A program made the position numbers and the translations under genes. Of a stretch of DNA of 38,814 bases, positions 1-38,814 are shown in pieces (position 1 is the first letter of the stretch; each line of letters starts with the position of its first letter). The notes beneath the pieces are model-generated. The model searched no databases and was not told where the DNA came from. It worked only from the letters and a program-made list of their open reading frames with translations. This stretch comes from a virus. Its lineage: Duplodnaviria > Caudoviricetes. Location of the stretch: positions 1 through 38,814 of IMG/VR virus record IMGVR_UViG_3300019996_000012, one strand, 5' to 3'.

Positions 1-1106
1 TCCCGAGGAACATTAGGGACGCGCAAATTGAACTTAATCGAAGACGAAATAGACTGCTCGACATCATGGATGCACAAGTGCAGTCCGGACTCATGGTCAA
101 AGAAAACGCCTTGGTCAATCCTGAAGACGCCTTTATGCAAGGCCCGGGTAAAGTCCTTTATTTCAAACAATCCGCAAATTTGGCTTCAGACGTTGCCCCA
201 ATTCCCCCCCCTCCCGTAGCACAAGGATGGATGGAATTAATCCAAACTATTGAAAAAGAGATCATGGATATTGTGGGTCCAGAAGAGCTTTTCGCTCAGA
301 ATATGGGTGCAAAAGAGATGACTGGCGTTCTCATGAAACTAAAGATGGGTGCGGGATTAACTGGCTTACGTAATATCTTCGACAGGTTAAACCAGTCTCA
401 AATGCTTCTTGGAGAGATATTCGATGAGATGGTCGTCAATAATTTCAGCGAAGGAAAAGTGGCACAAATTTTAGGGAAAGCGCCTTCACAACACTTCTTC
501 GATAAAACTTTCACAAAATATCATTGTTCCGTTGAAGAAGCAGAACTTACATCAAGCCAACGTCAACTACAATTCTTACAAGCGATCCAAATGCAACAGA
601 TGGGGATTCAGATTCCTTCGAAATATCTATTGGAGAAAAGTTCATTACAAGATAAAAAGGGCCTTATCGAAACAATCGAACAGCAAGAACAAGAAGCGGC
701 ACAGATGCAACAAGCACAGGCGATGGCGGAATTAGAACAGGCCCAAGTTCTATCTCGCAGCATAGAAGCAAAAGCACAAAACGATTATGCTTCTGCTGAA
801 GAGAAGAAAGCGCGAGTGATTATGGATATTGCTAAAGCGCAAGAAGAATCCGGGCAAGCACTTCAAAACAGAGCGATGGCAAACCTAGATAACGCCAAAG
901 CATTAAAAGAATTGGAAGAAGTCGACGAAAACAGATTGATTAAACTCTCTGACTTTATCCTTTCTGTTCAAGAACGACAGCAGCAAATGGAACATGCAGA
1001 AGATCAAGCGATGATGATGGAAGCTGAAGCTGTCAAAGCCCCTGTAGAACGTTCAGAGCAAGAATCTCGTGTTAAAAAATCATCCCTATCGGAAGCTATC
1101 GCGTGA
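1..1106 (+). CDS. Portal protein, C-terminal part (P22-like); continues from 37840-38814
   Basis: The frame is open from position 3 (PRNIRDAQIELNRRRNRLLDIMDAQ...). It has a Gln/Glu-rich coiled-coil C-terminus typical of P22-type portals. The N-terminal half lies at the window end, downstream of terL. Confidence 0.85.
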   Translation, partial: PRNIRDAQIELNRRRNRLLDIMDAQVQSGLMVKENALVNPEDAFMQGPGKVLYFKQSANLASDVAPIPPPPVAQGWMELIQTIEKEIMDIVGPEELFAQNMGAKEMTGVLMKLKMGAGLTGLRNIFDRLNQSQMLLGEIFDEMVVNNFSEGKVAQILGKAPSQHFFDKTFTKYHCSVEEAELTSSQRQLQFLQAIQMQQMGIQIPSKYLLEKSSLQDKKGLIETIEQQEQEAAQMQQAQAMAELEQAQVLSRSIEAKAQNDYASAEEKKARVIMDIAKAQEESGQALQNRAMANLDNAKALKELEEVDENRLIKLSDFILSVQERQQQMEHAEDQAMMMEAEAVKAPVERSEQESRVKKSSLSEAIA

Positions 1107-1315
1107 TCGAAGATTTGTCAGATGACATTAGATATGTGATTGAAGATCTAGATAAGATGCAAGAAATCGAAAATATTCAATCCGTGATTTCTCCATTGAT
1201 ACGCGAAATGTGTGAAAAATACGGTCGTGATCGTGTTGTGGACGCACTCCGTTCGTTCGTAAACATCACTTATATCTATTCAGATAAGCCACAAGAATTA
1301 CGCGATTATCCTTAA
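1103..1315 (+). CDS. Hypothetical protein
   Basis: 70-aa ORF whose GTG start overlaps the portal stop (GTGA). Confidence 0.6.
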   Translation: MIEDLSDDIRYVIEDLDKMQEIENIQSVISPLIREMCEKYGRDRVVDALRSFVNITYIYSDKPQELRDYP

Positions 1316-1654
1316 TTAACTATCAAACAATCCTAAACAATTCATGATCTTGCACATGGTTGAAAAAGTAGGATTTTTACTTTTCAACGCATGATATAAA
1401 GTAGATCTTGAAAGAGAATTTTTCTTTGACGCTTGATATTTATTTACTACTTCTAAATGCGTTTCAAGAATTTCAACAGCTGATTTTACGTCATTATCTT
1501 TCATACAATCCAAAACAGCCGCAAGTATGAACTTTTTGTCCAATAAATTCTGGTCTGGATCATGTGGAAGCACTTTTGCGTCAGATCTCAAGGTTCTAAT
1601 AGGTGTTTTCCCGATAGATCTTCTTGGCTTTCTTAATGTCTTTGTCTTGACCAT
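1316..1654 (-). CDS. Addiction-module antidote (HigA-like HTH antitoxin)
   Basis: C-terminal HTH 'LSRSTLYHALKSKNPTFSTMCKIM'. Strong AGGAGG RBS 8 nt before the ATG. Lies downstream of and overlaps a RelE/HigB-like toxin gene. Confidence 0.85.
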   Translation of the reverse strand: MVKTKTLRKPRRSIGKTPIRTLRSDAKVLPHDPDQNLLDKKFILAAVLDCMKDNDVKSAVEILETHLEVVNKYQASKKNSLSRSTLYHALKSKNPTFSTMCKIMNCLGLFDS

Positions 1655-1889
1655 TTTTATTTCCTCCTAACAACAATAATATTTTTTCTTTTGGAAAGTA
1701 ACAATAATAGACTCTTTTACCATCCGTCCATTTAAGTTCCCAAACACCGTCATCCAAATTTTTACACAAACCAAAAAAGCCACCATCCCTAATCATCTTT
1801 ACGCGCTTTTCTATCTGTGCCTTATCTTTTGGAGTCTGTTCATTGAACCAATTTAAAAACTCGTAAGATTTCGCTATCTCATATTCCAT
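1596..1889 (-). CDS. Type II toxin, RelE/ParE superfamily (HigB-like addiction-module killer)
   Basis: 'F..WF......K.QIEKRV..I..G.FG..KNL.DGVWELKW..GKRVYY....ILLLLGGNKNGQDKDIKKAK' signature. The likely start is ATG 1889 (MEYEIAKS) rather than TTG 1925. Confidence 0.9.
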   Translation of the reverse strand: MEYEIAKSYEFLNWFNEQTPKDKAQIEKRVKMIRDGGFFGLCKNLDDGVWELKWTDGKRVYYCYFPKEKILLLLGGNKNGQDKDIKKAKKIYRENTY

Positions 1890-1895
1890 AACTAT

Positions 1896-1989
1896 ATTGT
1901 GCCATGCAAGGAACGTTTTCTGCAAGAAATTTTACGCAAAAAAAACTTAAGTTAATTTTCTTGCACCATATATCCCATATATATAGAGT
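1896..1989. promoter_or_regulatory. Divergent sigma70-type promoters for higBA (-) and parA (+)
   Basis: + strand: TTGCAC(1961-66)-17-TAGAGT(1984-89). - strand: TTGCAG(1925-20)-18-CACAAT with upstream TG. A 9-bp inverted repeat TGCAAGAAA(1921-29)/TTTCTTGCA(1957-65) overlaps both -35 boxes. Confidence 0.55.
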
Positions 1990-2018
1990 ATATGCTTTCT
2001 ATATAGGGGGCATATATG
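1967..2018. repeat. TATATA/CATATA repeat array upstream of parA (candidate centromere/operator)
   Basis: catatatcccatatatatagagtatatgctttctatatagggggcatatatg: about 5 ATATA-type cores at roughly helical spacing. Confidence 0.55.
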
Positions 2019-5179: not shown

Positions 5180-5180
5180 T

Positions 5181-6084: not shown

Positions 6085-6357
6085 ATGGCAAATAAAAAAA
6101 ATCCACGTGTACATGTTACTTTACCTAAAGAGGAATATGAGATGTTATGTCTTGAAGCAAAGAAAAAACACATGAGTGTGTCAAGCATTCTAAGAATGCT
6201 TGCTATCGTTCATGTTGAGGAAGAGGAAGATAAATGGTTAGCTATTAAGGCTGAAGCAGCTGAAGAAAGATGGATCGCCGGGGGTAGAAAAACATATACG
6301 CATGAGGAAGTATGCAAGAGTTTCGGTATCAAATCGAATATTCCGAAGAATCGTTAG
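6085..6357 (+). CDS. Antitoxin (RHH/CopG-like, RelB-type)
   Basis: 'KKNPRVHVTL..EEYEML...AKKKHMSVSS', C-terminal 'TYTHEEV'; precedes and overlaps relE. Confidence 0.8.
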   Translation: MANKKNPRVHVTLPKEEYEMLCLEAKKKHMSVSSILRMLAIVHVEEEEDKWLAIKAEAAEERWIAGGRKTYTHEEVCKSFGIKSNIPKNR

Positions 6358-6581
6358 ATTTTCTTAAATCATCGCCTTCAGGTATACGTATAAAGATAAT
6401 TAGGGCAATAGAACAAAGGCTTTCAACAGATCCAAACCATTATGGAAAACCGATGGCTAGAGAATATGTTGGGTATCGAAGATTGAGAGCCGGAGACTGG
6501 CGAGTGATATATAAGGTCATAGAAAATAAATTGATTGTTTTGGTTATCGATATTGATCATAGAAAAGATATTTATGATTAA
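6312..6581 (+). CDS. relE: Type II toxin RelE/StbE family
   Basis: 'YQIEYS...L..DP..YGKPM....GYRRLRAGDWRVIY.......V.VIDIDHRKDIY'. Confidence 0.92.
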   Translation: MQEFRYQIEYSEESLDFLKSSPSGIRIKIIRAIEQRLSTDPNHYGKPMAREYVGYRRLRAGDWRVIYKVIENKLIVLVIDIDHRKDIYD

Positions 6582-7530: not shown

Positions 7531-7929
7531 ATGAGTTTAATAGTACCTTATCAGACCAGCGGCCAAGAACTTGGAGAAACGCGTCAAGCGATGACAAAGC
7601 GTTTGATGAAAGATGTCGAAGAGATGGTGAATAAATATAAGCTCAAGAGTGAAAAATACTACATTCTTGTTCATGCGAAGCCATTTCCTCATAGTCCGAA
7701 TCTCATCAAGATCAAGATGATACCTATGAACGTGAAGCCGAGTATGATGCTTTCGTGCTTGCTTTTTGGGGTTGACAATCAAAGGGGTGTCCTCACGTTA
7801 GAGTGGTCGCTTCCGGGTGATTGGCCCACTTGGTCAGTAGGGGGTACTAGTGAACCGCTTCCAGAGGTTATAGCTTCTGTGAATCAATCAGGCGTGAAAT
7901 ATCATTACGATGAGCTATTGCCAAGCTAG
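7531..7929 (+). CDS. Hypothetical protein
   Basis: 132-aa ORF abutting the previous stop. Confidence 0.75.
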   Translation: MSLIVPYQTSGQELGETRQAMTKRLMKDVEEMVNKYKLKSEKYYILVHAKPFPHSPNLIKIKMIPMNVKPSMMLSCLLFGVDNQRGVLTLEWSLPGDWPTWSVGGTSEPLPEVIASVNQSGVKYHYDELLPS

Positions 7930-7961: not shown

Positions 7962-8215
7962 TATTGCTCCGCGGTTCAGGACCGGGCTAGCTTGGGTTTT
8001 TCCCCTCACTGTTCGATAAACATGGGTTTACCTTATTTCACATGGTTTGGTTTTCCAGTGGGGGGACTTTTAAATTTAGTTGCAATAAGCAACACAGTGT
8101 CGCCGACTATCGGGCGTAAAATAAACCTCCCGTATTCCAGAGTGTTTACGGATGTGTGGGGCTTCGGCCCCGCATAATTATGGGCGTACTGCATTGTCGC
8201 CAAATGCAAAAGGAA
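7962..8215 (+). ncRNA. Structured RNA leader upstream of the scaffolding gene
   Basis: GC-rich intergenic tract with stems 8001-8011/8056-8066, 8079-8093, 8130-8151, a cUUCGg hairpin at 8155-8172, two hairpins with GUCGCC loops (8096-8108, 8190-8208) and two GGGCGUA elements (8112, 8182). Confidence 0.6.
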
Positions 8216-8218
8216 ATA

Positions 8219-8944
8219 ATGACACAAGAAATAATACAAGAGGAAGTCAAAGCTCATGAAGAGCCAAGCAACCAACCGCAAGGTGAAGCACAGCAAGCCG
8301 AAGAAGCAGCTCAAGAAACTAGAAAAGAGCCTTCCAAAAGCAACGCTGAAATCAATTGGGAACAAACTCGTCAACTTCTTCAAATGCAAAAGCAAAAGAT
8401 TGAAGATTTGGAAAGTCGTCTTGTTGAAAGGGAAAAGCCTTCACAAGTTGATGAGAAAGATGAGTTTTCAGAATTAGACCCTGACGACTACTTAACGGTA
8501 GGGAAAGCGAGAAAATTAGCTGAAAAACTTGCCGAAAAAAAAGCAACAGAAGCAGCTAAAAAGATCGTTCAGGAGTATTCTCAGCAGCAAACTGTTCAAA
8601 ATGATGAACACAGAATGCGTTCCAAACACGATGATTATGACTTTGTGGTTGAAAACTTTGCGATTCCTCTTATCAAAAACGACCCCGCTTTAGCATATCA
8701 GATTCAACATTCCAAAAATCCTGCGGAAACTGCATATAAACTAGGAAAACTCTCAGATTCATATGAGGAGTCAACAATGAAACAACAGACGAGTCCTAAA
8801 GCCGAAAAGGTACTTAAGAATGCCTCTAGGCCTGTTAGCGCAAATGCTGTTGGGTCTTCTCTAAAAAATCAATCAGAAAATTTTGCTAAAATGTCTCCGC
8901 AAGAAATATGGGCAGAGTCTCAGAAGTATGCTAGGAGGGCTTAA
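8219..8944 (+). CDS. Probable capsid scaffolding protein
   Basis: Acidic coiled-coil protein immediately before the major capsid gene; AAGGA RBS before ATG 8219. Confidence 0.75.
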   Translation: MTQEIIQEEVKAHEEPSNQPQGEAQQAEEAAQETRKEPSKSNAEINWEQTRQLLQMQKQKIEDLESRLVEREKPSQVDEKDEFSELDPDDYLTVGKARKLAEKLAEKKATEAAKKIVQEYSQQQTVQNDEHRMRSKHDDYDFVVENFAIPLIKNDPALAYQIQHSKNPAETAYKLGKLSDSYEESTMKQQTSPKAEKVLKNASRPVSANAVGSSLKNQSENFAKMSPQEIWAESQKYARRA

Positions 8945-8956: not shown

Positions 8957-8994
8957 ATGACAATTACAACAATGAATCAGCTACCACCGCCGGT
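8957..8994 (+). CDS. Major capsid protein exon 1 (MTITTMNQLPPP-GT)
   Basis: GAGGA RBS, ATG 8957. Unspliced it hits TAG at 8999; spliced to 9714 it gives MTITTMNQLPPPVQQWFDNVLLSRP. Confidence 0.88.
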
Positions 8995-9713
8995 AAAATA
9001 GAGTGTGCCGGCGTTAAATTGGAGGTAATTACTTGGAAAGTCTAAGCATAATATGATACCATTGTTGTACCTAATTAGGTAAAGCAAAGGAAAATATTAT
9101 GTATGATAACCAGAAGGAAGCACTTTGTGCGTATGCGTATATAGCCGGTATTATTGATGGAGAAGGTTCAATTATGATCACAAAATCAGTTTGTGGTTAT
9201 AAAAGAAAAACGCCCAGTTACACACCAAGAATTAAGGTGGGTAAGACTGAAAGACAATGTTTAGATTTCATTGTCAAGCATACTGGAATAGGTACTATTA
9301 CGTGCGAAGGTGTACGAAAATCACACAGAGATGGTTGTAATAGAAAAGGATTTTTTGTGTGGCAGGTTCATTCTTTAATAAACTGCCCAAAGTTCTTAAA
9401 ACTTATTATGCCATTTTTGGTCTTAAAAAGACCACAAGCGAAACTTTTACTGTCGTATTGCAAAGGCTTTAATAAGCAAAAGAAATGCATGGATGGGGTT
9501 CCTGTGATCGTACGAGCTTTTCGTGAGGAGACGTATCACAAAATGCGTAAGCTCAATGGAAAGAAGGCACCTGCAACGACTAAACCCTCTAACATCCGAG
9601 AGGATGAAGTGATAGTCTAAACTTATGGGAAACCATAAGAGAAAAACTCGAAGCGGTTTTTCCGCCTAGCAATAGGTTAGTAGGTCAGTGAATCGACCGA
9701 AAGTAATAGTAAG
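8995..9713 (+). mobile_element. Group I self-splicing intron (719 nt) in the major capsid gene, encoding a homing endonuclease
   Basis: The exon ends in U8994, paired to G9007 in P1 (CGCCGGU/GCCGGCG). P3 UUGGAGG 9019-25/CCUCUAA 9586-92. P7 GACUA 9578-82/UAGUC 9613-17. P8 CAUCC-GAGA-GGAUG. P9 CUUAUGG-GAAA-CCAUAAG. Terminal G9713. P10 UGU 9004-06/ACA 9714-16. Confidence 0.92.
9099..9620 (+). CDS. Intron-encoded single-motif LAGLIDADG homing endonuclease
   Basis: 'AYIAGIIDGEGSIMI' motif and 'FL..IMPFLVLKRPQA.L' C-terminal helix. The 3' end runs through the intron core elements P7/P3/P8. Confidence 0.93.
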   Translation: MYDNQKEALCAYAYIAGIIDGEGSIMITKSVCGYKRKTPSYTPRIKVGKTERQCLDFIVKHTGIGTITCEGVRKSHRDGCNRKGFFVWQVHSLINCPKFLKLIMPFLVLKRPQAKLLLSYCKGFNKQKKCMDGVPVIVRAFREETYHKMRKLNGKKAPATTKPSNIREDEVIV

Positions 9714-10626
9714 ACAACAATGGTTCGACAATGTGTTATTAAGTAGGCCAATGCCGAAATTAATACATAAACAAATGGCGATGAAGAAAGAACTTCCTGA
9801 GAATTCAGGGAGAATAGCTAGATACCGTAGGTATACAAACTTACAAACAGCAACGGTGCCATTACCAGATTCAGGGCTCACACCCCCAGGTCAGGTACTT
9901 AATGCCATCGACATTGATGCTAGACTGGATTTTTATGGTACTTATGTGACTATAACTGACCAAGTAGCATTCTTGAATCAAGACCCAGTCTTGAATCAAA
10001 CAGTATCTCTCTTAGCTCAGTCTATGAGAGAAACTGAAGACGAATTGATTAGAAATATGCTCCAATCCACAGCTGCAGTTATTAACTGCGTTGGTGGTAC
10101 GAACGGAGATAACCCAACGGAATTGAGCCGTACCGATATTGACACTACGATCCAAGCTTTGCTCGGTAACGACGCAATGATGATTTCTGACAATATCGAA
10201 GGTTCTCTGAAATTTGGTACAGCACCAGTCAGAGAGGCTTTCTGGGGTATGATGAAGACTGATATTATTGATGATTTGGAAGCTGTAACAGGCTTTATTT
10301 CACAAGCTCAGTATCCATCAAATATGAATGTGTTAAATGCGGAATGGGGTTCTGTTTCGAATATCAGGTTCTTGTATAGCTCTAAAGGCTCACAGACCTT
10401 GAATAGTTCGTTAAATGGTAACACTGTTTACAACACATTCGTTACTGGTCAAGAAGCTTATGCGATTGTTGAGCTTACACAAGCTACAGCATCGTTTATT
10501 TATACACCACCAGGTGGACCTACCGATCCACTTCGCAGGTTGCAATTAGGTGCATGGAAGATGGCGCAAGTGCCTCGTATCTTGAATGACGCGTGGATAT
10601 TTAATCTTCGCTCAACACACTCATAG
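9714..10626 (+). CDS. Major capsid protein exon 2 (N4-gp56 family, HK97 fold); spliced product 316 aa
   Basis: 'K.LP.NSG.....RRY..L.....PL..G.TP.G','YGTYVTITD','AEWGSV.NIRF','TDPL.....GAWK' motifs. Confidence 0.92.
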
Positions 10627-10636: not shown

Positions 10637-11713
10637 ATGCCTACATCCGAACATAATATGCTTCAGGGAACATTTACTGTTCCTAGCACTTTTGATGCAA
10701 CGCATCCTTTTTCAGTTAACGTTAATACTGGGTTTTTGCCTACAAAAATCACAATGATTAACGAAACCCAATGGGGTCAAACTGGTACAGGTAATGAAAA
10801 CATCCAAGACTTAAGATGGGATTATACAAATCCTACTTTGACTAATGGTACATTCATTAACGCTGCTGGAACTGCATTAGTGCCTTTCCAGATTAATGCT
10901 TCGACAACCAATCCAAACGGTATTACAACTTATGATGGTACACAAAGTATCAAACTAGGTCCTGCGATTACCGGTACAACAATTGTAAAAGCAACAAACA
11001 CTTTTACAACTTCTACCGCGCATGGATTCCAAATCGGAGATACTGTTCAAATTACTAACAATGCTGTTATGAAGCAAATTGGTGGTATGTGGTTTACAAT
11101 TGCCACAGTGCCGACAACAACAAGTTTTACTGTTGTTGCAAACTTCATCAACACAGCGAACTTTACTCAGGAAACATCTTTCGTAGTTAGAAAAGTTGTT
11201 GTGGGCCCTCTTTACTATCCAGAAAGAATTTGGATTACAGGGATTACACAAGCTAGCCCAATGGTAGTGACAACTTCCCCTAACCATAGATTGACTGTTG
11301 GCCAAAAAGTTAGATTGCGCGTTCCATCAACTTTTGGAATGGTTCAAGCTAACAATCTTGAAGCTGTTATTACTGCTGTTACTGCTTCTACCTTCACATT
11401 AGGTTCAGTGGCTAACACGAATAACACTGGCGTTGATTCTACAGCATTTACAGCATTTGCGTGGCCTGCTGCAACAGCAGTTCCATTCTCATTTGCTTAT
11501 GTTGTACCAATCGGTGCTGGCCCAAGCCCTTCTCCAGTTACATATGTAAATAGTAACACTTACAATGCTGATCTTCTTGATGATGCTACAACTAACGAAC
11601 AATTCCAAGGTTTCTCAGTAGGAACAGGAGTTTTCATTGTTGCAGCCGCAGGAGCTATCGGCGTGACAGCAGGAGACGTGTTCTCTTGGACTGCTTGGAG
11701 AGCTGACGTATAG
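10637..11713 (+). CDS. Virion structural (probable capsid decoration) protein with two E1-FCCH-like beta domains
   Basis: Thr-rich; 'TTSTAHGFQIGDTVQI....MKQI' and 'ITGITQASPMVVTT..NHRLTVGQKVRL.....GMVQAN'; AGGAGG RBS right after the capsid gene. Confidence 0.7.
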   Translation: MPTSEHNMLQGTFTVPSTFDATHPFSVNVNTGFLPTKITMINETQWGQTGTGNENIQDLRWDYTNPTLTNGTFINAAGTALVPFQINASTTNPNGITTYDGTQSIKLGPAITGTTIVKATNTFTTSTAHGFQIGDTVQITNNAVMKQIGGMWFTIATVPTTTSFTVVANFINTANFTQETSFVVRKVVVGPLYYPERIWITGITQASPMVVTTSPNHRLTVGQKVRLRVPSTFGMVQANNLEAVITAVTASTFTLGSVANTNNTGVDSTAFTAFAWPAATAVPFSFAYVVPIGAGPSPSPVTYVNSNTYNADLLDDATTNEQFQGFSVGTGVFIVAAAGAIGVTAGDVFSWTAWRADV

Positions 11714-11718
11714 AAAAT

Positions 11719-11742
11719 TTCGGAGGGTTTTGGCCCTCCGAA
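11719..11742 (+). terminator. GC-rich hairpin after the capsid/decoration genes (terminator or processing site)
   Basis: TTCGGAGGG-ttttgg-CCCTCCGAA; lacks a strong U-tract. Confidence 0.5.
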
Positions 11743-11758
11743 TTAATAAGAGAATGAC

Positions 11759-12163
11759 ATGACATTTGTTCCAACAAGGTATCTGATCAGCAATATCACA
11801 AAGGCAAATCCAGCAGTAGTGACGACGACACCGAATATTTATACCACGGGACAGATTGTCAGACTTAATATTCCTAAAGCATATGGAATGCAGGAATTGA
11901 ATAACAAATTAGCAAGTATAACGGTTTTGAATAATACGACTTTCAGCCTTCAATCATCACAGGTGCCACCATCTGTAAACATTGATTCCACGTATTTTCA
12001 GGCTTTTGTAAATGCTGGCACAGGGACTCCAGCAGCTGCTGTAGCTGTCGGTTCTGGTCCTACGCCATCCTTATCGCCAGATGATCTTGCGATGAGAAAT
12101 GAATGCACATCAAAAATAGAAGATGCTACGACGAATGTAGCAATAACAAACCAACCCTTTTGA
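11759..12163 (+). CDS. Small structural protein with one FCCH-like domain
   Basis: 'ISNITKANPAVVTT....YTTGQIVRL.IP..YGMQELN'; paralogous to the C-terminal half of the preceding gene. Confidence 0.7.
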   Translation: MTFVPTRYLISNITKANPAVVTTTPNIYTTGQIVRLNIPKAYGMQELNNKLASITVLNNTTFSLQSSQVPPSVNIDSTYFQAFVNAGTGTPAAAVAVGSGPTPSLSPDDLAMRNECTSKIEDATTNVAITNQPF

Positions 12164-12170
12164 GGTATAA

Positions 12171-12539
12171 ATGACCAAAGTATTAGAGCAAGTTCAAAGA
12201 ACGCCATTGTTAATAAGAAGAAAAAGTAAAATCCCTGTGAATACAGATTCCATCGAAGCTATGACGCGAGAAACTGATAAGCCTGTTATGGGGATATTTG
12301 TCAATATTGAATGTCCAGGACAGCCTGCAAAAGTTTGTGGAAGATACTATAAGCACATGGAATATTTCGATAAAACTTTTCATGATGGTGAGAAATGCAC
12401 CATCCCTCTTTCGGTTGCTCGTTTCATCAATGAAAGATGTCAGTATGAAAAACATAGTCATTTGACTGATGATAGAGGCAATCCGCTTAAAAGTGAAATT
12501 AAACTTCCTCGCTATAAATTTATGATAGAGGCGGCATAA
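12171..12539 (+). CDS. Hypothetical protein in the head-tail region
   Basis: 122 aa, GAGGT RBS. Confidence 0.75.
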   Translation: MTKVLEQVQRTPLLIRRKSKIPVNTDSIEAMTRETDKPVMGIFVNIECPGQPAKVCGRYYKHMEYFDKTFHDGEKCTIPLSVARFINERCQYEKHSHLTDDRGNPLKSEIKLPRYKFMIEAA

Positions 12540-12541
12540 CC

Positions 12542-13693: not shown

Positions 13694-13702
13694 GGATAAA
13701 TT

Positions 13703-14338
13703 ATGGCAAATACTTATTCAAATACTCCTCTAGGAAATGAAATTTTATCTGTGTCACAACCTCTAATTCAGGCTAATTTTAATTATCTTGTAAATACTCT
13801 TGGAACATCCAATGCAAATAATGGGGATCATCAAATTTCACAAGGTGGAAATGATAATACTCCTTTTGAAGGAAGACATAGACAGGTTTGCTTTTTGGAT
13901 AGAAATGGAAGTCCTTTACCAACAGCTACAGGCTTTGCGGATAGTGTTGATTCTGTTGTGTATTCAAATGCAGAAAATCTTTATCTCAACACTATAACTT
14001 CAGCAGCTGTAGCTTATCAATTAACATCGACGAGTTCAAATGCTGGAGAAAATGCGAAGTTTGGTGCTGCAACGAATGGGTGGATCTTTCTTCCAGGTGG
14101 AATAATCCTTAATTATGGCACTACAACTCTTGGCTTGGCTCCAACCGCTGTTTCATTTTCTAAAAGTTTTTCAAATACCCCAACGATTTGGTATGGAGCT
14201 CCTTTTCACGCTGAATTTTCAAGTACTTCTTTTGTACAAGGAATTGTAATTTCCTCGCTTACTAATACAGGTTTTACTTTTACTACTATATCTACTATAG
14301 CTACAAATGTCCCTTGGATAGCGTTCGGAAAGGCATAA
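13703..14338 (+). CDS. Tail-associated protein with C-terminal gp53-like/H-lectin-like domain
   Basis: 'NGWIFLPGGIILNYG.......VSF...F....WIAFG' C-terminal domain. Confidence 0.6.
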   Translation: MANTYSNTPLGNEILSVSQPLIQANFNYLVNTLGTSNANNGDHQISQGGNDNTPFEGRHRQVCFLDRNGSPLPTATGFADSVDSVVYSNAENLYLNTITSAAVAYQLTSTSSNAGENAKFGAATNGWIFLPGGIILNYGTTTLGLAPTAVSFSKSFSNTPTIWYGAPFHAEFSSTSFVQGIVISSLTNTGFTFTTISTIATNVPWIAFGKA

Positions 14339-16941: not shown

Positions 16942-16948
16942 GTGATTT

Positions 16949-17674: not shown

Positions 17675-17678
17675 TTAT

Positions 17679-24532: not shown

Positions 24533-24533
24533 G

Positions 24534-25088: not shown

Positions 25089-25095
25089 GAGATTT

Positions 25096-26607: not shown

Positions 26608-26623
26608 AAATAAAAGGTTAAAT

Positions 26624-27352
26624 ATGTCAAATATTGGGAAAGGGGCAACAGGGACAATATTGCAAGGCGCGGGAACGGGCGCATCTCCTAATTTTTCAAC
26701 TGCAACATATCCTGCAACCGCTACTGGAACGGGAACCTTATTAAGAGCTGACGGTACAAACTGGTCTGCGACTACTTCTACCTATCCAAATACAAACGCA
26801 GTGAGCACTCTTTTATATGCATCTTCAGCAAACGTGATGTCAGCGCTAGCAACAGCAAATAGTGCAATTTTAGCAACAAATAGTTCTGGGGTTCCTTCCA
26901 TTACAGCTGCTTCGGGAAATTGGTTAAATACTGCGAGGAGTGCTTTTGCAGCGTCTCTTTCTGGAAACGTAACGAACGCAACTGGAGATAATACCACCTA
27001 TACAATAGCTTTTGATACAGAAGCATTTGATCAGGGCAATGATTTTGCAACAAATACTTTCACTGCTCCTGTGACTGGAAAATATATGTTTAATTATCAA
27101 ATATCATTGTCAAATTTAGGAGCTGCACACACCTCTGCAATCGTTACAATTGCTGGCATAAATACAGCTAGATTTCAACCATTTGTAATCGTGAGTTCTG
27201 GAGGAATAGTAACTTTTGGAGGTTCTATTTTCGTCTCCTTAACGGCTGCCGCGACTGTAACAATGGCAGTTACGGTTTCAGGAAGCACCAAAACGGTAAC
27301 AGTTGTCGGAGGAACTTCAGGAACGACAATGTCAGGATATCTAGTGTGTTAA
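26624..27352 (+). CDS. Tail fibre with C-terminal C1q-like domain
   Basis: 'AFAA...........IAFDTEAFDQGNDF..NTFTAPVTGKYMF...MSGYLV' gC1q signature. Confidence 0.8.
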   Translation: MSNIGKGATGTILQGAGTGASPNFSTATYPATATGTGTLLRADGTNWSATTSTYPNTNAVSTLLYASSANVMSALATANSAILATNSSGVPSITAASGNWLNTARSAFAASLSGNVTNATGDNTTYTIAFDTEAFDQGNDFATNTFTAPVTGKYMFNYQISLSNLGAAHTSAIVTIAGINTARFQPFVIVSSGGIVTFGGSIFVSLTAAATVTMAVTVSGSTKTVTVVGGTSGTTMSGYLVC

Positions 27353-28050: not shown

Positions 28051-28839
28051 CTAAGCGGCTTTTGCAAGCTCTTTAATTTTCCATTTTGCGAAATCTGTTT
28101 CAAATTTTTCTCTATTTTGGTAGTCAAAGAGTGTGTCTTTAATTGTTTTCTTCCAATGTTGAGAATATTTCTTAAGATAGGTTTTCATCATTTCCTGATC
28201 CTCTGGAAGATATTCACGAACATGTTCAATAATCAATTGTTCGGCTACTTCAGGATTTTCAGGCTCTTTTTCTTCAGCTATAGTTTCGATGATTTCGCAT
28301 TTAGCATCACGAATCTCTCCTTCAACATAAGCCGTTCCTAATATATCTGGAGCAAGTCTTCGACCCAATTTAGATATGGCTCGTGCAAAATACATGTCTT
28401 CAGGATTTTGTTTCCATGGTCCACGATTGATTACACCGGCTCTTGCTGCATCTTCCTCAAGAAATTTAGCTTCACAGGTATCACCAGAATCGGGTCTTGT
28501 TCCTTCTAAGATACACCCCTTAGCATCTAAACGTTTAACTGTGATCTTAATTCCTGCGCGGCGCATCATCGCATTGATCATACGTGCGGAGATTTCAACT
28601 TTGCCTTGAATGTTCCATAATCCACCATTTAAGGCAGCCATTGGAGGAATGCCAAGTTCTTTGGCAGCCAAAAGAATCATAAATATCTTATTTTCTCCGC
28701 CCACGCCAGAATACAAACCGGAATTGGCGGCGTTTCTGGCAACAGTTTGTAATATCATTAGTTCGTTTTGACTTGGTATTGTTTCATTATTTGTCTTCTT
28801 AATTTCTAATTCTTTTTCTTGCATATTATTTCCTTCCAT
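28051..28839 (-). CDS. RecT/Red-beta-like single-strand annealing protein
   Basis: 'ILLAAKELGIPPMAALNG.LWNIQGKVEISA..INA','F..EDA.RAG.....W..NPEDM.FARA.....R...PD.LG..Y..GEI'. Confidence 0.8.
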   Translation of the reverse strand: MEGNNMQEKELEIKKTNNETIPSQNELMILQTVARNAANSGLYSGVGGENKIFMILLAAKELGIPPMAALNGGLWNIQGKVEISARMINAMMRRAGIKITVKRLDAKGCILEGTRPDSGDTCEAKFLEEDAARAGVINRGPWKQNPEDMYFARAISKLGRRLAPDILGTAYVEGEIRDAKCEIIETIAEEKEPENPEVAEQLIIEHVREYLPEDQEMMKTYLKKYSQHWKKTIKDTLFDYQNREKFETDFAKWKIKELAKAA

Positions 28840-28928: not shown

Positions 28929-29477
28929 TTATAGATAGTCCAAAACGTTTTCTTCTTTCTTATCTTTGAAAAAGTGTCTGTATACATCCAAACAAGCTCG
29001 AAAGAGCTTAAAGTTTTGTTCATACAAAAAAATCGTTGCCTCTCCTCCTTGCTTGCATAGCTTCACAAATTCTATTCTGTGAATGTTGTAGCCGGCTTTA
29101 TTGGCTAAATAAAAATAGGCAGATCCCTGTAAACCCCATGTCTGGTTTTCTTTTACTGATGTCTTAAAGTCCACGAGAATATGTTTCCCATTTTCTTCAT
29201 AAATGGCGTCACATTCACCTGTAAGCATTAAATCATCACAATAGAATCTTTCCGGCTTATCTAAAAATTTTTTATCTCCTTTCCACGATTTAAAGCTCTC
29301 AATATATCCAGAAAGTCTTTCGTCATGAATAGGTGAACCCATATCAGATATAATAGCATCACAAATCGAATGAACGGCAGTTCTTCTTTCTCCTGCTTTT
29401 TTAAGAATTTCAGGATCGATGTGTTTCAATCCTGAAAATGGCTCTAGTACCGTCGTAACGCGGGTATAATCCTTCAT
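28929..29477 (-). CDS. PD-(D/E)XK exonuclease (Cas4/RecB-like)
   Basis: 'YTRVTTVL','TAVH','E...Y.....TGECDAI......LVDFKTS','W.LQ.SAY'. Confidence 0.85.
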   Translation of the reverse strand: MKDYTRVTTVLEPFSGLKHIDPEILKKAGERRTAVHSICDAIISDMGSPIHDERLSGYIESFKSWKGDKKFLDKPERFYCDDLMLTGECDAIYEENGKHILVDFKTSVKENQTWGLQGSAYFYLANKAGYNIHRIEFVKLCKQGGEATIFLYEQNFKLFRACLDVYRHFFKDKKEENVLDYL

Positions 29478-30337: not shown

Positions 30338-30556
30338 ATGAATTTAAAAGAATATCTATTTAGAAAAGACATTAGTAGAACTGATTTTGCAAAGTTGGTT
30401 GGTGTCACACGCCAGACTATTTATAAAATTATATGTGGAACTACACCTACACTTGATGTAGCATTGAAAATCGAAGAAGTAACAAATGGTGAAGTAAAAT
30501 GCAAAGATTTATTACAACATAAGAAAACAAAAAAAGAAAATCTTGCTCAGGATTAG
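30338..30556 (+). CDS. Cro/XRE-family HTH regulator
   Basis: 'MNLKEYL....ISRTDFAKLVGVTRQTIYKI..G..P....ALKIEEVTNGEV...DL'. Confidence 0.9.
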   Translation: MNLKEYLFRKDISRTDFAKLVGVTRQTIYKIICGTTPTLDVALKIEEVTNGEVKCKDLLQHKKTKKENLAQD

Positions 30557-30880: not shown

Positions 30881-30953
30881 TTATGAAAGTGATATGCGTC
30901 TACATACTAAGAAAAATCTACATTTCCCCACAACTAAAAATTCGGAGTTTTTT

Positions 30954-31265
30954 ATGAAAGTGATTAATTTTTCGAACGATCCTGCAAAAATGCCGCCCCT
31001 ACTATATCTTGAACAGGTTGCTGAACATTGCCCAAAAGCTGTTTCAACTTATCTTTTGATATGGAGAGAAAAAGATAAACAAGGAAAATTGATAATTGAT
31101 AAGGATGAAATCAAAAATAATTACCTCACAACTCTCACAAAATTGAAAAACAACCTCGTCCTGCTAGTGAAAGAGGCTTTAATTTCAATTCATGAAACTC
31201 CTAATGCCCTTCACATAGAGGTTGTAGAGTGGAATGATATAGATTATTCCGATATTGCATGTTAA
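30954..31265 (+). CDS. Hypothetical protein, possible winged-helix
   Basis: GGAG RBS before ATG 30954 (MKVINF...). Confidence 0.65.
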   Translation: MKVINFSNDPAKMPPLLYLEQVAEHCPKAVSTYLLIWREKDKQGKLIIDKDEIKNNYLTTLTKLKNNLVLLVKEALISIHETPNALHIEVVEWNDIDYSDIAC

Positions 31266-31800: not shown

Positions 31801-32838
31801 ATGTCTAATTCCGGTTTTATTCAAATTCCAAAATCTTTTTTAACTGGTTTTATTTGGAATAATCTTTCTTTAGAATATCGACACATCTTTACGACAATTC
31901 TAATTCATATGGCGTTTAAACCAACTCAAATGAATTCGTTTGGTCACATTGTGACCGTTCAACCTGGTCAATTTCTTACCACCCTTGAAGATCTTGAAAG
32001 ACTTTGTAAACATAAGAAAATTAAAGAGTCGAAAATTTATCGTGCTTGGCAAAAATTTAATTTAGTTGGAATTTCGAAACAGGAAACGAAACACGGTAAA
32101 ACGCTCATAACTATCACGGAACCAGCGATTTGTGAGTTATTAAAAAATCAAAACGAAACAGGTTTCGACACAAGAACGAAACAAGAACGAAACATAAAAG
32201 AAGAAGATAATAATAATACATATAATATCTCTAAGCGAAAAAATTTATCGGACTCAAAACCTGAAATCGTTGACATCCGAAGTTTTCAACAGGAAACACT
32301 TGAAGAGTCCGATAATATATATGTTGTTGTGTTAGAAGGTCTTAGAATAACAAAAAAATTCCATGAAAAACTTTTGGAAGAAGAGAAGAAGCTTGGTATA
32401 GAAAACTTTGCTGAAAAATGTTACGAACATCTGTCAAACTGGAAAAATGAAAAAATTGCTCTGGGTGAATGCGTAAAGCATACGGACGAAGGGATGATCA
32501 GGAAATGGGTCAAACTGGCAGTTAGAAAGAATGTTGCAGAAGAAAAAGAAGTAGAATTGAAAGAACAAATGAATCTTCAAAGGGCAAGTTATTTATCCGG
32601 TAAGCCATCCACCAGTCAACAATCTAATTTTCAAAAACATAAATCTTTTGCGAGAGAAGAATCCAAAGATTTAGAATCTGAAGATTGCGAACTAAATTTT
32701 GGGCCTTTTGCAGCATTTTTCATTTTCAAAATAACTCAAGGAAACCCTATCGAAATCAAATATAGCGACGAAACCTTCAAAGAAGATTTTCTTTCACAGT
32801 TAGTGCGACATAAATTTAAAAAAAGAAAGGTTGTTTAA
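31801..32838 (+). CDS. Replication initiator protein (lambda O / replisome-organiser-like)
   Basis: N-terminus 'SGFIQIPK......W','VQPGQFLTTLEDL', low-complexity linker carrying iterons; position between the Cro-like gene and SSB/RusA. Confidence 0.75.
   Translation: MSNSGFIQIPKSFLTGFIWNNLSLEYRHIFTTILIHMAFKPTQMNSFGHIVTVQPGQFLTTLEDLERLCKHKKIKESKIYRAWQKFNLVGISKQETKHGKTLITITEPAICELLKNQNETGFDTRTKQERNIKEEDNNNTYNISKRKNLSDSKPEIVDIRSFQQETLEESDNIYVVVLEGLRITKKFHEKLLEEEKKLGIENFAEKCYEHLSNWKNEKIALGECVKHTDEGMIRKWVKLAVRKNVAEEKEVELKEQMNLQRASYLSGKPSTSQQSNFQKHKSFAREESKDLESEDCELNFGPFAAFFIFKITQGNPIEIKYSDETFKEDFLSQLVRHKFKKRKVV
32075..32232 (+). repeat. Iteron-like repeats and AT-rich tract: candidate replication origin
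   Basis: CGAAACA at 32075, 32087, 32154, 32177, 32188 and CGACACA at 32166 (11-12 bp spacing), followed by gataataataatacatataatat. Confidence 0.65.
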
Positions 32839-34819: not shown

Positions 34820-35206
34820 ATGGGAACTCCAGGCGTATTACTTGATAAAGACAAGATATTAAAGGCAATTATTGATAAAAAAGGGATTATTTCTCATGCC
34901 GCTACTCTTGTGCCTTGCAATCCTGTCACCATTTACAATTGGATGGATAAAGACCCAGAAGTTGCCGAAGCAGTAAAAAGTGCGCGTGCAAACGCAGACA
35001 AAGAACGCTTAGACACATTAGAAAGGCTTAAAGAAAAGACCCTTAGCTCAGCAGAAGCGCTTCTAGATGAGTGTGATACGTCAATGACGATATTCTTGAT
35101 GAAATCATTGCTTAAAGTCAGCGAGCATAGCGCAGATTCTACCATCAACGTAATCATCAACGAACAACCTTATCGTGCCAACAATACAGATTCCCCATCA
35201 GTTTGA
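34820..35206 (+). CDS. Terminase small subunit (probable)
   Basis: HTH 'GIISHAA.LV.CNP.TIYNWM.KDPE.AEAV', 'TIFLMK'; overlaps the terL start. Confidence 0.75.
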   Translation: MGTPGVLLDKDKILKAIIDKKGIISHAATLVPCNPVTIYNWMDKDPEVAEAVKSARANADKERLDTLERLKEKTLSSAEALLDECDTSMTIFLMKSLLKVSEHSADSTINVIINEQPYRANNTDSPSV

Positions 35207-36518
35207 ATGTAGAGACTATCAAGTTCCTACTTGGGAGGCATTGAGAGCAGGAAAAAAGCGCGTTGTTTGTGCGTGGCATCGTGGTGCAGGTAAAGATCTT
35301 TTCGCGCTTAATTTTCTAATATGGAAAGCGTTACAGAAGCCTGCCGTCTATCTACATTGCTTCCCAAAATATAACCAAGGCAAGAAAGCTATATGGAATA
35401 GCGTTCATCAAACTGATGAAGGCATTGCTATGAGCTATCTAGATCATTTTCCAAAAGAAATAATCAAATACAAAAACAGCTCAGATATGCGTTTGGAGCT
35501 TGTTAATGGCTCTGTATATTGCGTGATGGGGGTTGACGGTAAGAATGCGACGCAAGCACGTGGTATGAATCCTAGCTTTGTCATCATGTCAGAATATGCC
35601 TACATGGATCCTGAAAGCTGGTATACTTTAGAGCCTCGTGTTGCTCAGAACAATGGCACAGCCCTATTTTTAAGCACGCCGAATGGACAAAATCATTTCT
35701 ATAATCTCTACAACTATGCTAAATCCGGACACAATCCAGATTATTTTGGCTCCCTTTTAAGTATCGAAGATACGAAAACATTAAGTACAGATCATATCGA
35801 AAAACTTCGCTCTGAAGGTATTCCAGAGGACTTTATCCAACAGGAATACTACTGCTCGTTTACACGCGGAGCAGAAGGATCTTATTATGGTAAACAAATC
35901 CAATCTGCCCGCGATGAGGAACGTATTACTAAACTCAACATCAAAGCTGATCTGCCGGTTCATACCGCTTGGGATATTGGTATTGGAGATTCTAGCTCAA
36001 TTTGGATTTTTCAGCAGCTACATAATGGCAACCTAAATTTCTTACATTATTATGAGAATAACAATGAAGGATTGGATCATTACATCAAATATTTGGACCG
36101 TTGGAAAGAGACTAATAAGGCTATTTGGGGAACTCATTATGTGCCTCATGATATGGGCCACCGTCAATTTGAATCTGGAAATGAACTTACTCTTACAGCT
36201 CTTAACATGGGTTATCCCATGGTGGTAGTTCCAAGAAAATCTATTGAAGAAGGAGTTCAAGCGGTACGATCTTTATTACCTCATTGCTCCTTTGATTCAA
36301 AGGGTTGCGATAGAGGAATCAAATGTCTTGACTTTTACCGAAAAAAATGGAATGACAACCTAAAAGTTTACTATGATGAGCCACTTCACGATCAGTATTC
36401 CCATGGTGCGGATGCCTTTAGAATGGCAGCTATGGGATTAAAACTTATCGGAAGCTCAACAAATAAACTGACCGCATCGTCCATTCAGGAAATGCGTTAC
36501 CGAAACTTAGGATACTAG
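35175..36518 (+). CDS. terL: Terminase large subunit
   Basis: Walker A 'WHRGAGKD', Walker B 'FVIMSEYA', motif III 'FLSTPNGQNHFY', nuclease 'AWDIGIGD', 'HDQYSHGADAFR'. Confidence 0.95.
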   Translation: MPTIQIPHQFECRDYQVPTWEALRAGKKRVVCAWHRGAGKDLFALNFLIWKALQKPAVYLHCFPKYNQGKKAIWNSVHQTDEGIAMSYLDHFPKEIIKYKNSSDMRLELVNGSVYCVMGVDGKNATQARGMNPSFVIMSEYAYMDPESWYTLEPRVAQNNGTALFLSTPNGQNHFYNLYNYAKSGHNPDYFGSLLSIEDTKTLSTDHIEKLRSEGIPEDFIQQEYYCSFTRGAEGSYYGKQIQSARDEERITKLNIKADLPVHTAWDIGIGDSSSIWIFQQLHNGNLNFLHYYENNNEGLDHYIKYLDRWKETNKAIWGTHYVPHDMGHRQFESGNELTLTALNMGYPMVVVPRKSIEEGVQAVRSLLPHCSFDSKGCDRGIKCLDFYRKKWNDNLKVYYDEPLHDQYSHGADAFRMAAMGLKLIGSSTNKLTASSIQEMRYRNLGY

Positions 36519-36817: not shown

Positions 36818-36979
36818 ATGAAAAGATTAGCCGTTATCTTATGTGCAATTTTGGGCGGCTGCACATATTCAATCAACATGGTTCATACAGAGGGATCGGC
36901 ATCTGACGTTGTGGATGAAACACAAGCACCAACAGATGACATTTCACCAACTTTATCGATACCAGCGAAAATGATATGA
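36818..36979 (+). CDS. Small lipoprotein (53 aa)
   Basis: MKRLAVILCAILGG-C lipobox, then TYSINMVHTEGSASDVVDETQAP... Confidence 0.75.
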   Translation: MKRLAVILCAILGGCTYSINMVHTEGSASDVVDETQAPTDDISPTLSIPAKMI

Positions 36980-37224: not shown

Positions 37225-37427
37225 AGTTTCTCAAGAAGCTTTTCAGATCTAAAGAAGTCGATCACAAGGCGATTCTTTTGGGCGATGAATATAATTGCTT
37301 GCACAAAGCAATCAATGAAGCTATAAAAGAACAGTTCGACATAGGCTGGGCATTTCATTCTATGAATGTCCAGACCTATGATCGAAGAAACATTGCACAT
37401 GCCATTTTGATATTTAAAAGAAAATGA
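37218..37427 (+). CDS. Hypothetical protein
   Basis: 69-aa ORF overlapping the previous gene. Confidence 0.55.
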   Translation: MLKFLKKLFRSKEVDHKAILLGDEYNCLHKAINEAIKEQFDIGWAFHSMNVQTYDRRNIAHAILIFKRK

Positions 37428-37568
37428 AATTAAGATTTTTTTGCCCATCCTGTAAGAAACATTTCATAGGTAATAAACTAATAGATAACAATTATTGTGT
37501 TAATTGCGCTGTTGAATTGGTTTTCGTTGGTGCTTTATTAACTGATAATAAAAATAGTAAATTAACTA

Positions 37569-37597
37569 TTTACAAATAGATTTTTTTTGTGTACGGT
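37569..37597 (+). promoter_or_regulatory. Candidate promoter for the portal operon
   Basis: TTTACA-17-TACGGT with TGTG upstream of the -10. Confidence 0.4.
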
Positions 37598-37627
37598 GTC
37601 AAGTAAATAATAAACTACGGGTTTATA

Positions 37628-37837
37628 ATGACTTGGCCGGATGTCTTCGACTTTATCAAATACAATTCTCCATTTCTAAATGAAGAAACTTTTTGTCTCA
37701 AAGTCAGAGATGGATACCAAGAATCAGCTTTGAAATTTATTTTTAAGTTCAATGAAGCCGATCTTAATCATATCAAAAATCCACCTCCTGACAATGTCGT
37801 AGCGTCAGAACCTTATAATGTCATAAGGAACAAATAA
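37628..37837 (+). CDS. Hypothetical protein
   Basis: 69-aa ORF directly before the portal. Confidence 0.55.
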   Translation: MTWPDVFDFIKYNSPFLNEETFCLKVRDGYQESALKFIFKFNEADLNHIKNPPPDNVVASEPYNVIRNK

Positions 37838-37839
37838 CT

Positions 37840-38814
37840 ATGGCTTGGCCATCCAATAATCCGATTTCTCGTGAACTAAACGAACGATGGAAAGAATCAA
37901 GTTCTTTATGGCAACAGTGGCAGCAACAGGCTGATATCGATATCAAAATGGTTTCTGGTCAGCAAGATTGTGCTAGAAATTCTTCCGGTTTTGGTGGTGC
38001 TAATTATCGTAATCAGACTCAATTACAATTCAATAAGATCCTTCGTGTTTGCAATATGATCGAAGGCTTTCAGCGTGATAATCGTTTAGCTTCTATCATT
38101 TCAGCTTCGGATAATGACCCTGACATGGGGGAAACGGCAGAGCAAAGAAGCGAAATTCTTTCTTGGAATATGCGTCAGGATCAAACTTACGAAAAGATTT
38201 CTGATTCTTTTTCTGGTAGCGTAAATTGCGGTATTAACTTAATGCAAGTCTGGATGGATTTTAGAGAAGATCCAGAAAATGGACAAATTTGTACTTCTAG
38301 GATACCTTACAACGCATTCTTAATGGATCCTTATTGGACAGATCCTACTTTAAAAACCGATTGTGATTGGATTTGGACAAGGAAATATCTAACCAAGACT
38401 CAAGTAAAAAGCCTTTATCCTAAAGTTGCAGAGCAATTTCCACGTATTGAAACTTCATATGCTGCAAAAGATGGTAAGTTTCCTTTTATGGCTCAGAACT
38501 GGTTTCAAGGGCAATTTAATCTGTTTGCTTATGATGAGTATTGGAAGAAAGACTACAAGAAAGTCAGAAAGATTCTTGATAGAGCAACTGGAGAAGTGGC
38601 TCCATGGAATGGTACGAGGGAACAATTTCAATTGCTTAGACGTTATAATCCTAATGTAGAATTGATTTCCGCTACTGTCCCAACAATCAAAATGTATGTC
38701 TTGGTTAATAATGAGCTCGTTTATGAAGAACAATCACCATATGGTTTGGATCGATTCCCCTTTGTCCCTTTTGTATGTTATCATTTTCCGGAGATTCAGA
38801 ATTATGCTTACCGT
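37840..38814 (+). CDS. Portal protein, N-terminal part (P22-like), runs off the window end
   Basis: Open frame of 325 codons, MAWPSNNPISRELNERW...QFNKILRVCNMIEGFQRDNR...FLMDPY...DCDWIWTRK...SPYGLDRFPFVPF...YAYR. Absent from the ORF track because it has no stop. Confidence 0.88.
   Translation, partial: MAWPSNNPISRELNERWKESSSLWQQWQQQADIDIKMVSGQQDCARNSSGFGGANYRNQTQLQFNKILRVCNMIEGFQRDNRLASIISASDNDPDMGETAEQRSEILSWNMRQDQTYEKISDSFSGSVNCGINLMQVWMDFREDPENGQICTSRIPYNAFLMDPYWTDPTLKTDCDWIWTRKYLTKTQVKSLYPKVAEQFPRIETSYAAKDGKFPFMAQNWFQGQFNLFAYDEYWKKDYKKVRKILDRATGEVAPWNGTREQFQLLRRYNPNVELISATVPTIKMYVLVNNELVYEEQSPYGLDRFPFVPFVCYHFPEIQNYAYR

Follow-up and report, generated by a model that had tools for sequence, protein, structure and literature searches.

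A podophage genome with plasmid maintenance genes and a probable environmental chlamydial host

The virus record IMGVR_UViG_3300019996_000012 (Duplodnaviria; Caudoviricetes), whose 38,814 nucleotides we call the window and analyze at full length, carries the virion genes of a tailed phage together with a ParA partition gene, two toxin-antitoxin (TA) pairs and an iteron-bearing initiator, which raises the question of how this phage persists and in which bacterium. A preliminary description had proposed a tailed phage-plasmid of environmental Chlamydiota. We find that the window is one circularly permuted, near-complete podophage genome of 38.8 kb, about 10 bases short. Its identity as a short-tailed double-stranded DNA (dsDNA) phage, known here from sequence alone, is close to certain. 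The gene content points to an environmental chlamydia (Chlamydiota), an obligate intracellular bacterium, as the probable host, and a plasmid prophage state, which would fit the predicted anatomy of this genome, is likely. We give slightly better than even odds to the two combined, a podophage of environmental chlamydiae that probably survives in its host as a circular plasmid prophage.

Genome form, virion genes and maintenance genes

The window is the whole record (G000), which is rated 100% complete and classed 'linear' and has no terminal repeat. Its portal open reading frame (ORF) is divided between the record ends (37840-38814, then 1-1106), and a residue count against the portals of 22 relatives indicates that about 10 bases are missing inside the portal gene at the 38814/1 junction. 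Because the portal gene is split in this way and direct terminal repeats occur in the records of 7 of 25 relatives, we call the genome circular. Two window proteins are also present on a 38,965-nt contig, a length that would equal 38,824 nt plus a 141-nt assembly overlap. Two freshwater sequencing runs held short pieces only, mostly from relatives, and no RNA sequencing runs containing the window are listed.

Family scans (Pfam, PHROG) covered 71 window ORFs. The portal, the large terminase subunit (TerL), the N4-gp56 capsid protein and the tail nozzle were all identified, which bears out the podovirus virion and packaging set of the preliminary description:

37840-38814, + strand: P22-like portal, N-terminal half (PF16510 positions 2-284, E 3e-31; intact in relatives)
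1-1106, + strand: P22-like portal, C-terminal half (PF16510 positions 297-592)
34820-36518, + strand: terminase small (weak match, phrog_4044, E 8e-4) and large (phrog_2, PF03237) subunits
7531-7929, + strand: conserved core gene with no assigned function, between portal and scaffold (cluster in 25 of 26 genomes)
8156-8944, + strand: putative scaffolding protein, preceding the capsid gene (cluster in 25 of 26 genomes)
9714-10626, + strand: major capsid exon 2, N4-gp56 family (TIGR04387 above cut-off)
10637-14338, + strand: probable virion and head-tail genes, a block conserved in relatives
14340-16406, + strand: podovirus tail nozzle (profile and fold matches)
16408-20376, + strand: putative DNA-ejection (internal virion) proteins, assigned by their position downstream of the nozzle
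21341-27352, + strand: tail fiber genes with G/T-rich repeats of 165 nt and a C1q tip (PF00386, phrog_31660)

The terL gene itself spans 35175-36518 in these scans, and its product reaches no more than 37% identity in a set of 50,697 GenBank phage records. The capsid profile score for the N4-gp56 family was 154.6 bits against a cut-off of 60. The 14340-16406 product matches podovirus nozzles by profile (best E 2e-9), and its predicted fold (predicted local distance difference test score, pLDDT, 73) resembles those of the Pa223, SU10, VP1 and P22 gp10 nozzles (Foldseek best E 3e-25; P22 gp10 E 9e-14). No family matches were found for the products of 16408-20376 (Pfam, PHROG), none among PDB sequences for that of 12542-13693, and neither a family nor a fold match for that of 7531-7929 (predicted fold pLDDT 67). 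A short phrog_584 domain in 10637-12163 is the sole match to a tape-measure, sheath or tube-type family in these 71 reading frames, of which the longest encodes a G/T-rich fiber. The 21341-23923 product is an 860-residue fiber built of 55-residue (165-nt) G/T-rich repeats, 80% alike in G067.

The window belongs to a large, conserved and uncultured phage family. A terL search returned 26 IMG/VR loci at 61-77% identity, and a capsid search returned 62 IMG/VR viral loci, most of them 81-92% identical and the longest on a contig of 42,556 nt, together with 58 metagenome loci that include the window's own record (longest contig 41,625 nt). Contigs of the best 120 of 1,343 protein homologues are no longer than 39,948 nt (one row has no length), and no capsid-bearing family contig exceeds 43 kb. 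The 25 relatives compared here are the longest or most useful records and include near-copies (G068/G082 and G066/G070/G078). Family genomes measure 33-43 kb and consist almost wholly of phage genes, with gene order and core genes conserved. In a portal tree the window, represented by only half its portal, falls in a 17-genome clade with 100/98 support that also holds G072.

The features on which a plasmid state would depend are the following:

1968-2015, + strand: TATAT/ATATA repeat array, candidate centromere or operator upstream of parA (5 sites in 80 nt)
2016-2651, + strand: short ParA partition ATPase (PF13614, phrog_164; NF041546 at 147 bits, under the cut-off of 180)
2640-2712, + strand: second array of TATAT/ATATA repeats, separating parA from the partner gene (5 sites in 80 nt)
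2710-2952, + strand: ParA partner, predicted ribbon-helix-helix adaptor
1316-1654, - strand: HigA-like antitoxin with basic N-terminus (HI1420-like; PF21716 and TIGR02684, under cut-off)
1596-1889, - strand: HigB-like (Gp49/RelE) toxin, homologue of Waddlia HigB1 (TIGR02683 above cut-off)
6085-6357, + strand: RelB/DUF6290 antitoxin (PF19807, E 2e-7)
6312-6581, + strand: RelE/ParE toxin (PF05016, E 9e-10; phrog_1213)
28051-28839, - strand: RecT-like annealase (phrog_4171)
28929-29477, - strand: PD-(D/E)XK exonuclease (phrog_298)
30338-30556, + strand: single Cro-like helix-turn-helix (HTH) repressor (PF01381), divergent from the recombination genes
31801-32838, + strand: lambda-O-like replication initiator (phrog_2514 N-terminal match) with internal iterons
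32072-32197, + strand: iterons in a 2+4 layout within the initiator gene, predicted origin

The ParA/partner pair proposed from the sequence is upheld for ParA by PF13614 and for the partner by synteny and a ribbon-helix-helix sequence pattern, with no family match for the latter in Pfam, PHROG or cut-off scans. Partner homologues 36-43% identical lie behind parA in G065 and L026, and the variant Walker A motif of ParA is present in 5 of 150 homologues. Five sites per array were reached in 0 of 100 block shuffles. Together, parA, its partner and the flanking arrays have the layout of a type Ib partition system.

Both TA modules were likewise recognized, one as a Gp49/TIGR02683 toxin with an HI1420-like antitoxin and the other as a RelE/ParE toxin with a DUF6290 antitoxin. 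Residues K55, R60, R61 and K80 of Waddlia HigB1 map to K53, K58, R59 and K78 of the window protein, with R60 replaced by K, so that HigB retains three of the four residues mutated in the Waddlia study (K55, R61, K80). Passages of that study describe HigBA1 as a functional plasmid TA module and HigB1 as a tested toxin (PMC10880633).

The initiator is of the phage O type and not a plasmid Rep. Between 32075 and 32194 it contains five exact copies of CGAAACA and one copy with one mismatch; five copies were reached in 0 of 100 synonymous shuffles, and none of six control genes stands out, which confirms that the initiator bears genuine iterons. The shuffle test was passed at 0/100 by 8 of the 13 ORFs in the initiator cluster (window included), each with a motif of its own.

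The expected absence of an integrase also held. No integrase family was found among the 71 window ORFs, the tyrosine integrase profile PF00589 matched 0 of 25 relatives (controls 14/14), and the large serine recombinase profile PF07508 matched 0 of 21 genomes, window included. Homologues of five chlamydial plasmid integrases were absent from 145 loci and 25 genomes, and one resolvase occurs among the relatives, in G062.

We speculate that fibers would bind the chlamydial surface and that the nozzle and ejection proteins would deliver the DNA, whose redundant ends could be circularized by the exonuclease/RecT pair. Binding of the initiator to the iterons inside its gene would bring in the host helicase, and the single Cro-like repressor would limit copy number. 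Cro-type copy-number control is that of the lambda-dv replicon. ParA, the ribbon-helix-helix partner and the flanking repeats would then segregate the copies as a type Ib system, and HigBA and RelBE would penalize plasmid loss.

Links to chlamydial plasmids

The case for a chlamydial host comes from the convergence of partition, recombination, regulation, fiber-tip and TA genes on chlamydial plasmids, as seen in comparisons with the 72,556 plasmids of PLSDB. HigB and HigA each match four of these: Waddlia pWc, Protochlamydia pPNK and two plasmids of one Bdellovibrio strain. The chlamydial matches score 82 and 74 bits versus 66 for HigB, and 71 and 68 versus 67 for HigA. The toxin is 47-50% identical to the Waddlia toxin and has the same gene order as HigBA1, and the antitoxin is 42% identical to the gene behind HigB1 on pWc, 33% to that of pPNK and 38% to those of the Bdellovibrio plasmids. 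The suggestion that the HigA with a basic N-terminus resembles chlamydial proteins held up, the pair being related to HigBA1 of pWc. Among the best 120 of 310 toxin homologues, all three organism-named proteins are from Chlamydiota; 10 toxin clusters, chosen for size or NCBI source, contained seven organism-named proteins, these three included, and all seven are from Chlamydiota.

Recombination and regulatory genes lead to other plasmids of the phylum. In PLSDB the window RecT matches Criblamydia pCS1 and nothing else (113 bits, compared with 69 for the best cultured phage), the exonuclease is 30% identical to the pCS1 nuclease, and the Cro-like protein is 40% identical to SNE_RS00045 of Simkania pSn. 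In the relative G072, ParA matches pCS1 and pPNK best (276 and 260 bits; next record 215), and Bet matches pSn best (243 bits; next 132). On pSn, bet is divergent from an HTH gene (37-49% like the family Cro) and adjoins a homologue of the membrane-protein gene found at 20820-21047 in the window, which is the layout of the phage. The fiber of G067 matches pCS1 at 114 bits (best cultured phage 72). Also shared between the relatives and the pCS1 prophage are DUF1064 at 55-59% and fiber tips at up to 56%, along with the exonuclease, a probable terS and a small lipoprotein. Of 26 genomes, 24 have a match of 60 bits or more among the four chlamydial plasmids compared, a weak measure that had no matched control. 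Nine PLSDB protein searches, from the window and G072, placed a chlamydial plasmid on top by bits in five cases and other taxa in two, and gave no match in two.

Two further observations concern Simkania: its plasmid NC_015710 (L028 6836-8615) contains a remnant of the family early module, comprising the membrane protein, the Cro-like HTH protein and bet, and the fiber of G075 matches the Simkania plasmid near 120-122 kb.

A chlamydial host is thus supported mostly by genes other than those first named as evidence for it. HigBA alone held among the named markers, which had also included ParA and two small proteins:

20820-21047, - strand: small transmembrane and coiled-coil protein, a multicopy family gene
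36818-36979, + strand: small predicted lipoprotein (nearest cluster viral, 0.90; homologues in 3 of 25 relatives)

The lipoprotein gave no host information. Its nearest Atlas cluster is viral, and the Rz1 and colicin-lysis clusters, at 0.88, serve only as leads. The product of 30894-31265 resembles RepL/HTH_36 folds, and its Atlas clusters gave no host signal.

Persistence, rival explanations and significance

Several results count against a plasmid-borne phage of chlamydiae, of which those bearing on persistence are taken first. ParA was above cut-off in only 3 of 21 genomes and is lacking in 18 of 20 relatives, none of 25 relatives has the HigBA pair and one of them has RelBE, and no junction-spanning contig was found among the contigs of matching sequencing runs, where the best DNA match was a soil metagenome that may be the source of the record. 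A chlamydial podophage that is lytic or loosely carried, having picked up ParA and the TA genes as passengers from plasmids that circulate in chlamydiae, would have neither ParA nor integrase in most of its kin, as is the case in those 18 relatives, and we consider this account rather unlikely though worth weighing. ParA in the family is of two unrelated types and needs three changes on the portal tree, and no CI-type repressor was detected among the 71 window ORFs (Pfam, PHROG), where the only HTH regulator is the one Cro-like protein. O-type initiators with iterons also drive lytic replication, as in lambda. Against passenger status stand a ParA cassette that is complete, with partner and flanking arrays, and that recurs in six records (window, G065, L013, L026, G072 and L073, three of them fragments outside the 21-genome count), and two intact TA pairs nearby, one having a toxin that keeps most of the residues mutated in the Waddlia study. 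If this genome does persist as a plasmid prophage, plasmid life may be an accessory option in the family, since so few genomes carry ParA; members with neither ParA nor integrase would either carry the O-type replicon at higher copy number or be mostly lytic. Lysis and the control of lysogeny may depend on genes that our scans did not recognize: lysozyme PF00959, amidase PF01510 and M15 peptidase PF13539 each matched 0 of 21 genomes, and no lysin was found among the 71 window ORFs, 284 cluster representatives (Pfam) or 87 of these (PHROG).

The remaining contrary results concern the host. The seven PLSDB searches with window genes gave three chlamydial tops by bits, two from other taxa and two without a match. 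Window ParA was rejected as a host marker: its best plasmid matches (about 48%) come from Hymenobacter, Rickettsia and Deinococcus, and the 10 representatives nearest to it, four of them on 28-41 kb contigs, give no host. RelBE was rejected as well, the best match of RelE being Paracaedimonas. So was the 20820-21047 protein as chlamydia-specific: it is a multicopy phage gene (33 copies in 17 of 26 genomes, often in tandem, at most five per genome) whose profile matches the Simkania plasmid and also 2 of 151 control genomes, from the phylum of the Verrucomicrobiota-labeled genome. HigB is 46% identical to its Bdellovibrio homologue versus 47% to that of Waddlia, a HigA plasmid list ranked by coverage times identity puts Bdellovibrio first, and the toxin tree is too weak to place the host, the window's position having no support star. 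The Bet, RecT and G067-fiber searches followed a prior local chlamydial match and so test specificity, not discovery. Family terL occurs on a 4.2-kb contig of a 'Verrucomicrobiae bacterium' metagenome-assembled genome (MAG), and the membrane-protein family in MAGs labeled 'Saprospiraceae' and 'Nitrosopumilaceae'; we read these as putatively misbinned phage contigs. When GTDB was scanned with an alignment of terL, no genome, chlamydial ones included, yielded a close family member, and one 34% match appeared. This null result is in keeping with a non-integrating phage that genome binning passes over, and it also gives no chromosome-level support.

Another bacterium of the amoebal or predatory gene pool (Bdellovibrionota, Holosporales/Rickettsiales, Babelota or Verrucomicrobiota) could accordingly be proposed as host, the chlamydial matches reflecting exchange or thin sampling. 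The HigBA pair on Bdellovibrio plasmids at similar identity, the Paracaedimonas match of RelE, the Rickettsia and Cardinium plasmids among the top ParA matches and the non-chlamydial MAG labels favor such a host, and PLSDB presumably holds few plasmids of these groups. We nevertheless judge it improbable, given that partition, recombination, regulation, fiber-tip and TA genes point together to four different plasmids of chlamydiae, that every named toxin homologue (7/7) is from Chlamydiota, and that the phylum of the Verrucomicrobiota-labeled genome yielded distant terL only, in 5 of 61 genomes. Least credible of all is a temperate phage integrating into a chromosome or plasmid through a recombinase that is unrecognized or supplied by the host, a route possibly taken by the pCS1 prophage: the tailed-phage module inside pCS1, the G062 resolvase and the early-module remnant on pSn would suit it, but the family has no contig above 43 kb, the portal is split across the record ends, and no dif-like site was found, the best match having 9 of 28 mismatches.

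Beyond the chlamydial plasmid prophage that we favor for the window itself, we put forward a wider picture tentatively, at somewhat less than an even chance. A widespread, undescribed family of 33-43 kb podophages would live in environmental chlamydiae inside eukaryotic hosts, never integrating, persisting as a self-regulating plasmid replicon of the O type to which captured ParA and TA cassettes sometimes add stability, exiting by a route with no recognized endolysin and moving genes from one chlamydial plasmid to another. Such a family could also supply the tailed helper that chlamydial satellites are missing. The chlamydial phages that have been isolated are very small single-stranded DNA (ssDNA) viruses, and in the literature consulted tailed-phage genes of the phylum appear only in putative prophages on plasmids and as one stray terminase. 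With its many near-complete genomes, this conserved family offers concrete targets for asking whether tailed phages reach bacteria inside amoebae, and bears on gene exchange among environmental chlamydiae and on the targets of their TA and CRISPR (clustered regularly interspaced short palindromic repeats) defenses. That no integrase, CI-type repressor or endolysin was detected across 21 genomes raises questions of persistence and exit, and the replicon could serve as a genetic tool in a group with few tools.

Other features and comparison with known systems

The window contains three further features of note:

8957-8994, + strand: major capsid exon 1, corresponding to the N-terminus of intron-less relatives
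8995-9713, + strand: group I-type intron with a LAGLIDADG homing endonuclease (9099-9620), ending in G, with folded helices
33584-33949, + strand: RusA-like resolvase (phrog_34)

The intron, 719 nt long, splits the capsid gene (8957-10626), whose two exons together align to the N-terminus of intron-less relatives. Its fold has a P7-like helix and 3' hairpins (z -2.3), and the 9099-9620 product matches PF00961 (weakly) and phrog_5046. Rfam and transfer RNA scans of the window gave no matches, and the intron itself had none in Rfam. The capsid genes of G062, G072 and G076 are likewise interrupted.

Among the relatives, a 19-bp palindrome (at most one mismatch) occurs in 10 of 25 genomes and 0 of 104 shuffled genomes, in one to five often intergenic copies (G063, G064, G068, G071, G073, G074, G075, G081, G082 and G084), and the window lacks it. 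Under a stricter pattern, 6 of 101 control genomes each had a single match with one mismatch. Proteins with tandem HTH domains occur in five relatives (G063 9675-10022; G066, G070 and G078; G074 24246-24701). In layout they resemble chlamydial EUO, and scans give excisionase-type matches only; they are possible mimics of this chlamydial developmental regulator. Accessory genes of relatives encode GroES, an outer-membrane beta-barrel, RtcB, an SPFH protein, an RNA ligase and a PNKP phosphatase (G076 11596-11877; G063 11187-11762; G069, L115 9132-10325 and 11655-12515; G068, L111 7077-9751), and no lineage-specific family was matched by the GroES and the outer-membrane barrel.

In portal family and nozzle fold the phage resembles P22/Sf6/VP1/Pa223-type podoviruses, and in its O-type initiator with internal iterons the lambda O replicon. 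It differs from both in a TerL distant from those of GenBank phages and in having no detected integrase, CI or endolysin. With Chlamydiamicrovirus (Microviridae) of Chlamydiaceae it would share the host phylum, yet those are small, tailless ssDNA viruses; family scans detected no shared gene, and the window has 38.8 kb of dsDNA with portal, terminase and nozzle. Phage particles have reportedly been seen in Neochlamydia by electron microscopy.

Passages of Bertelli et al. list only microviruses as isolated chlamydial phages, note Protochlamydia spacers with no matches, and date the first report of CRISPR in the chlamydial order to 2016 (PMC5010888). A passage of Schulz et al. mentions unclassified viruses predicted to infect Chlamydiales and gives no description. 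Our literature search, with subscription papers and the PMC7969092 supplement outside its reach, found no description of this podophage family and no described free tailed-phage genome of chlamydiae. The view that such a phage would be largely undescribed therefore stands for the family itself; it does not extend to tailed-phage gene sets on chlamydial plasmids, which have been published in an article whose relevant passages report a putative prophage ('phage group') on plasmids of Criblamydia sequanensis and Protochlamydia massiliensis (Koestlbacher et al. 2021, PMC7846284).

The window shares with the phage-plasmids P1, N15 and SSU5, as treated in passages of Pfeifer et al. 2021 (PMC7969092), the combination of virion genes with partition, initiator and TA genes and no integrase; it is unlike them in its O-type iteron initiator, in the accessory standing of ParA in its family and in having no recognized lysis genes. 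The main text of that article does not contain 'Chlamydi'. With HigBA1 of Waddlia chondrophila pWc (passages of PMC10880633) the window pair shares toxin and antitoxin sequence, gene order and K55, R61 and K80, whereas it is phage-borne, has K for R60 and is known here from its sequence.

The closest parallel in the phylum is the pCS1 prophage. Like the window it has tailed-phage genes on a ParA-bearing chlamydial replicon, with RecT and exonuclease in common, and like the relatives it has the fiber tips, DUF1064, a likely terS and ParA. It is unlike them in residing on an 89.5-kb metal-resistance plasmid and in its contractile-tail module (sheath, baseplate, DUF1073 portal), and the family capsid, portal and TerL had no match on pCS1 at E 1e-5. 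The Criblamydia plasmid NZ_LK031773 (L152 24734-46972; L153 23177-26815) carries an apparently full contractile-tail set together with ParA and DnaB, and may itself be a phage-plasmid in a cultured chlamydia.

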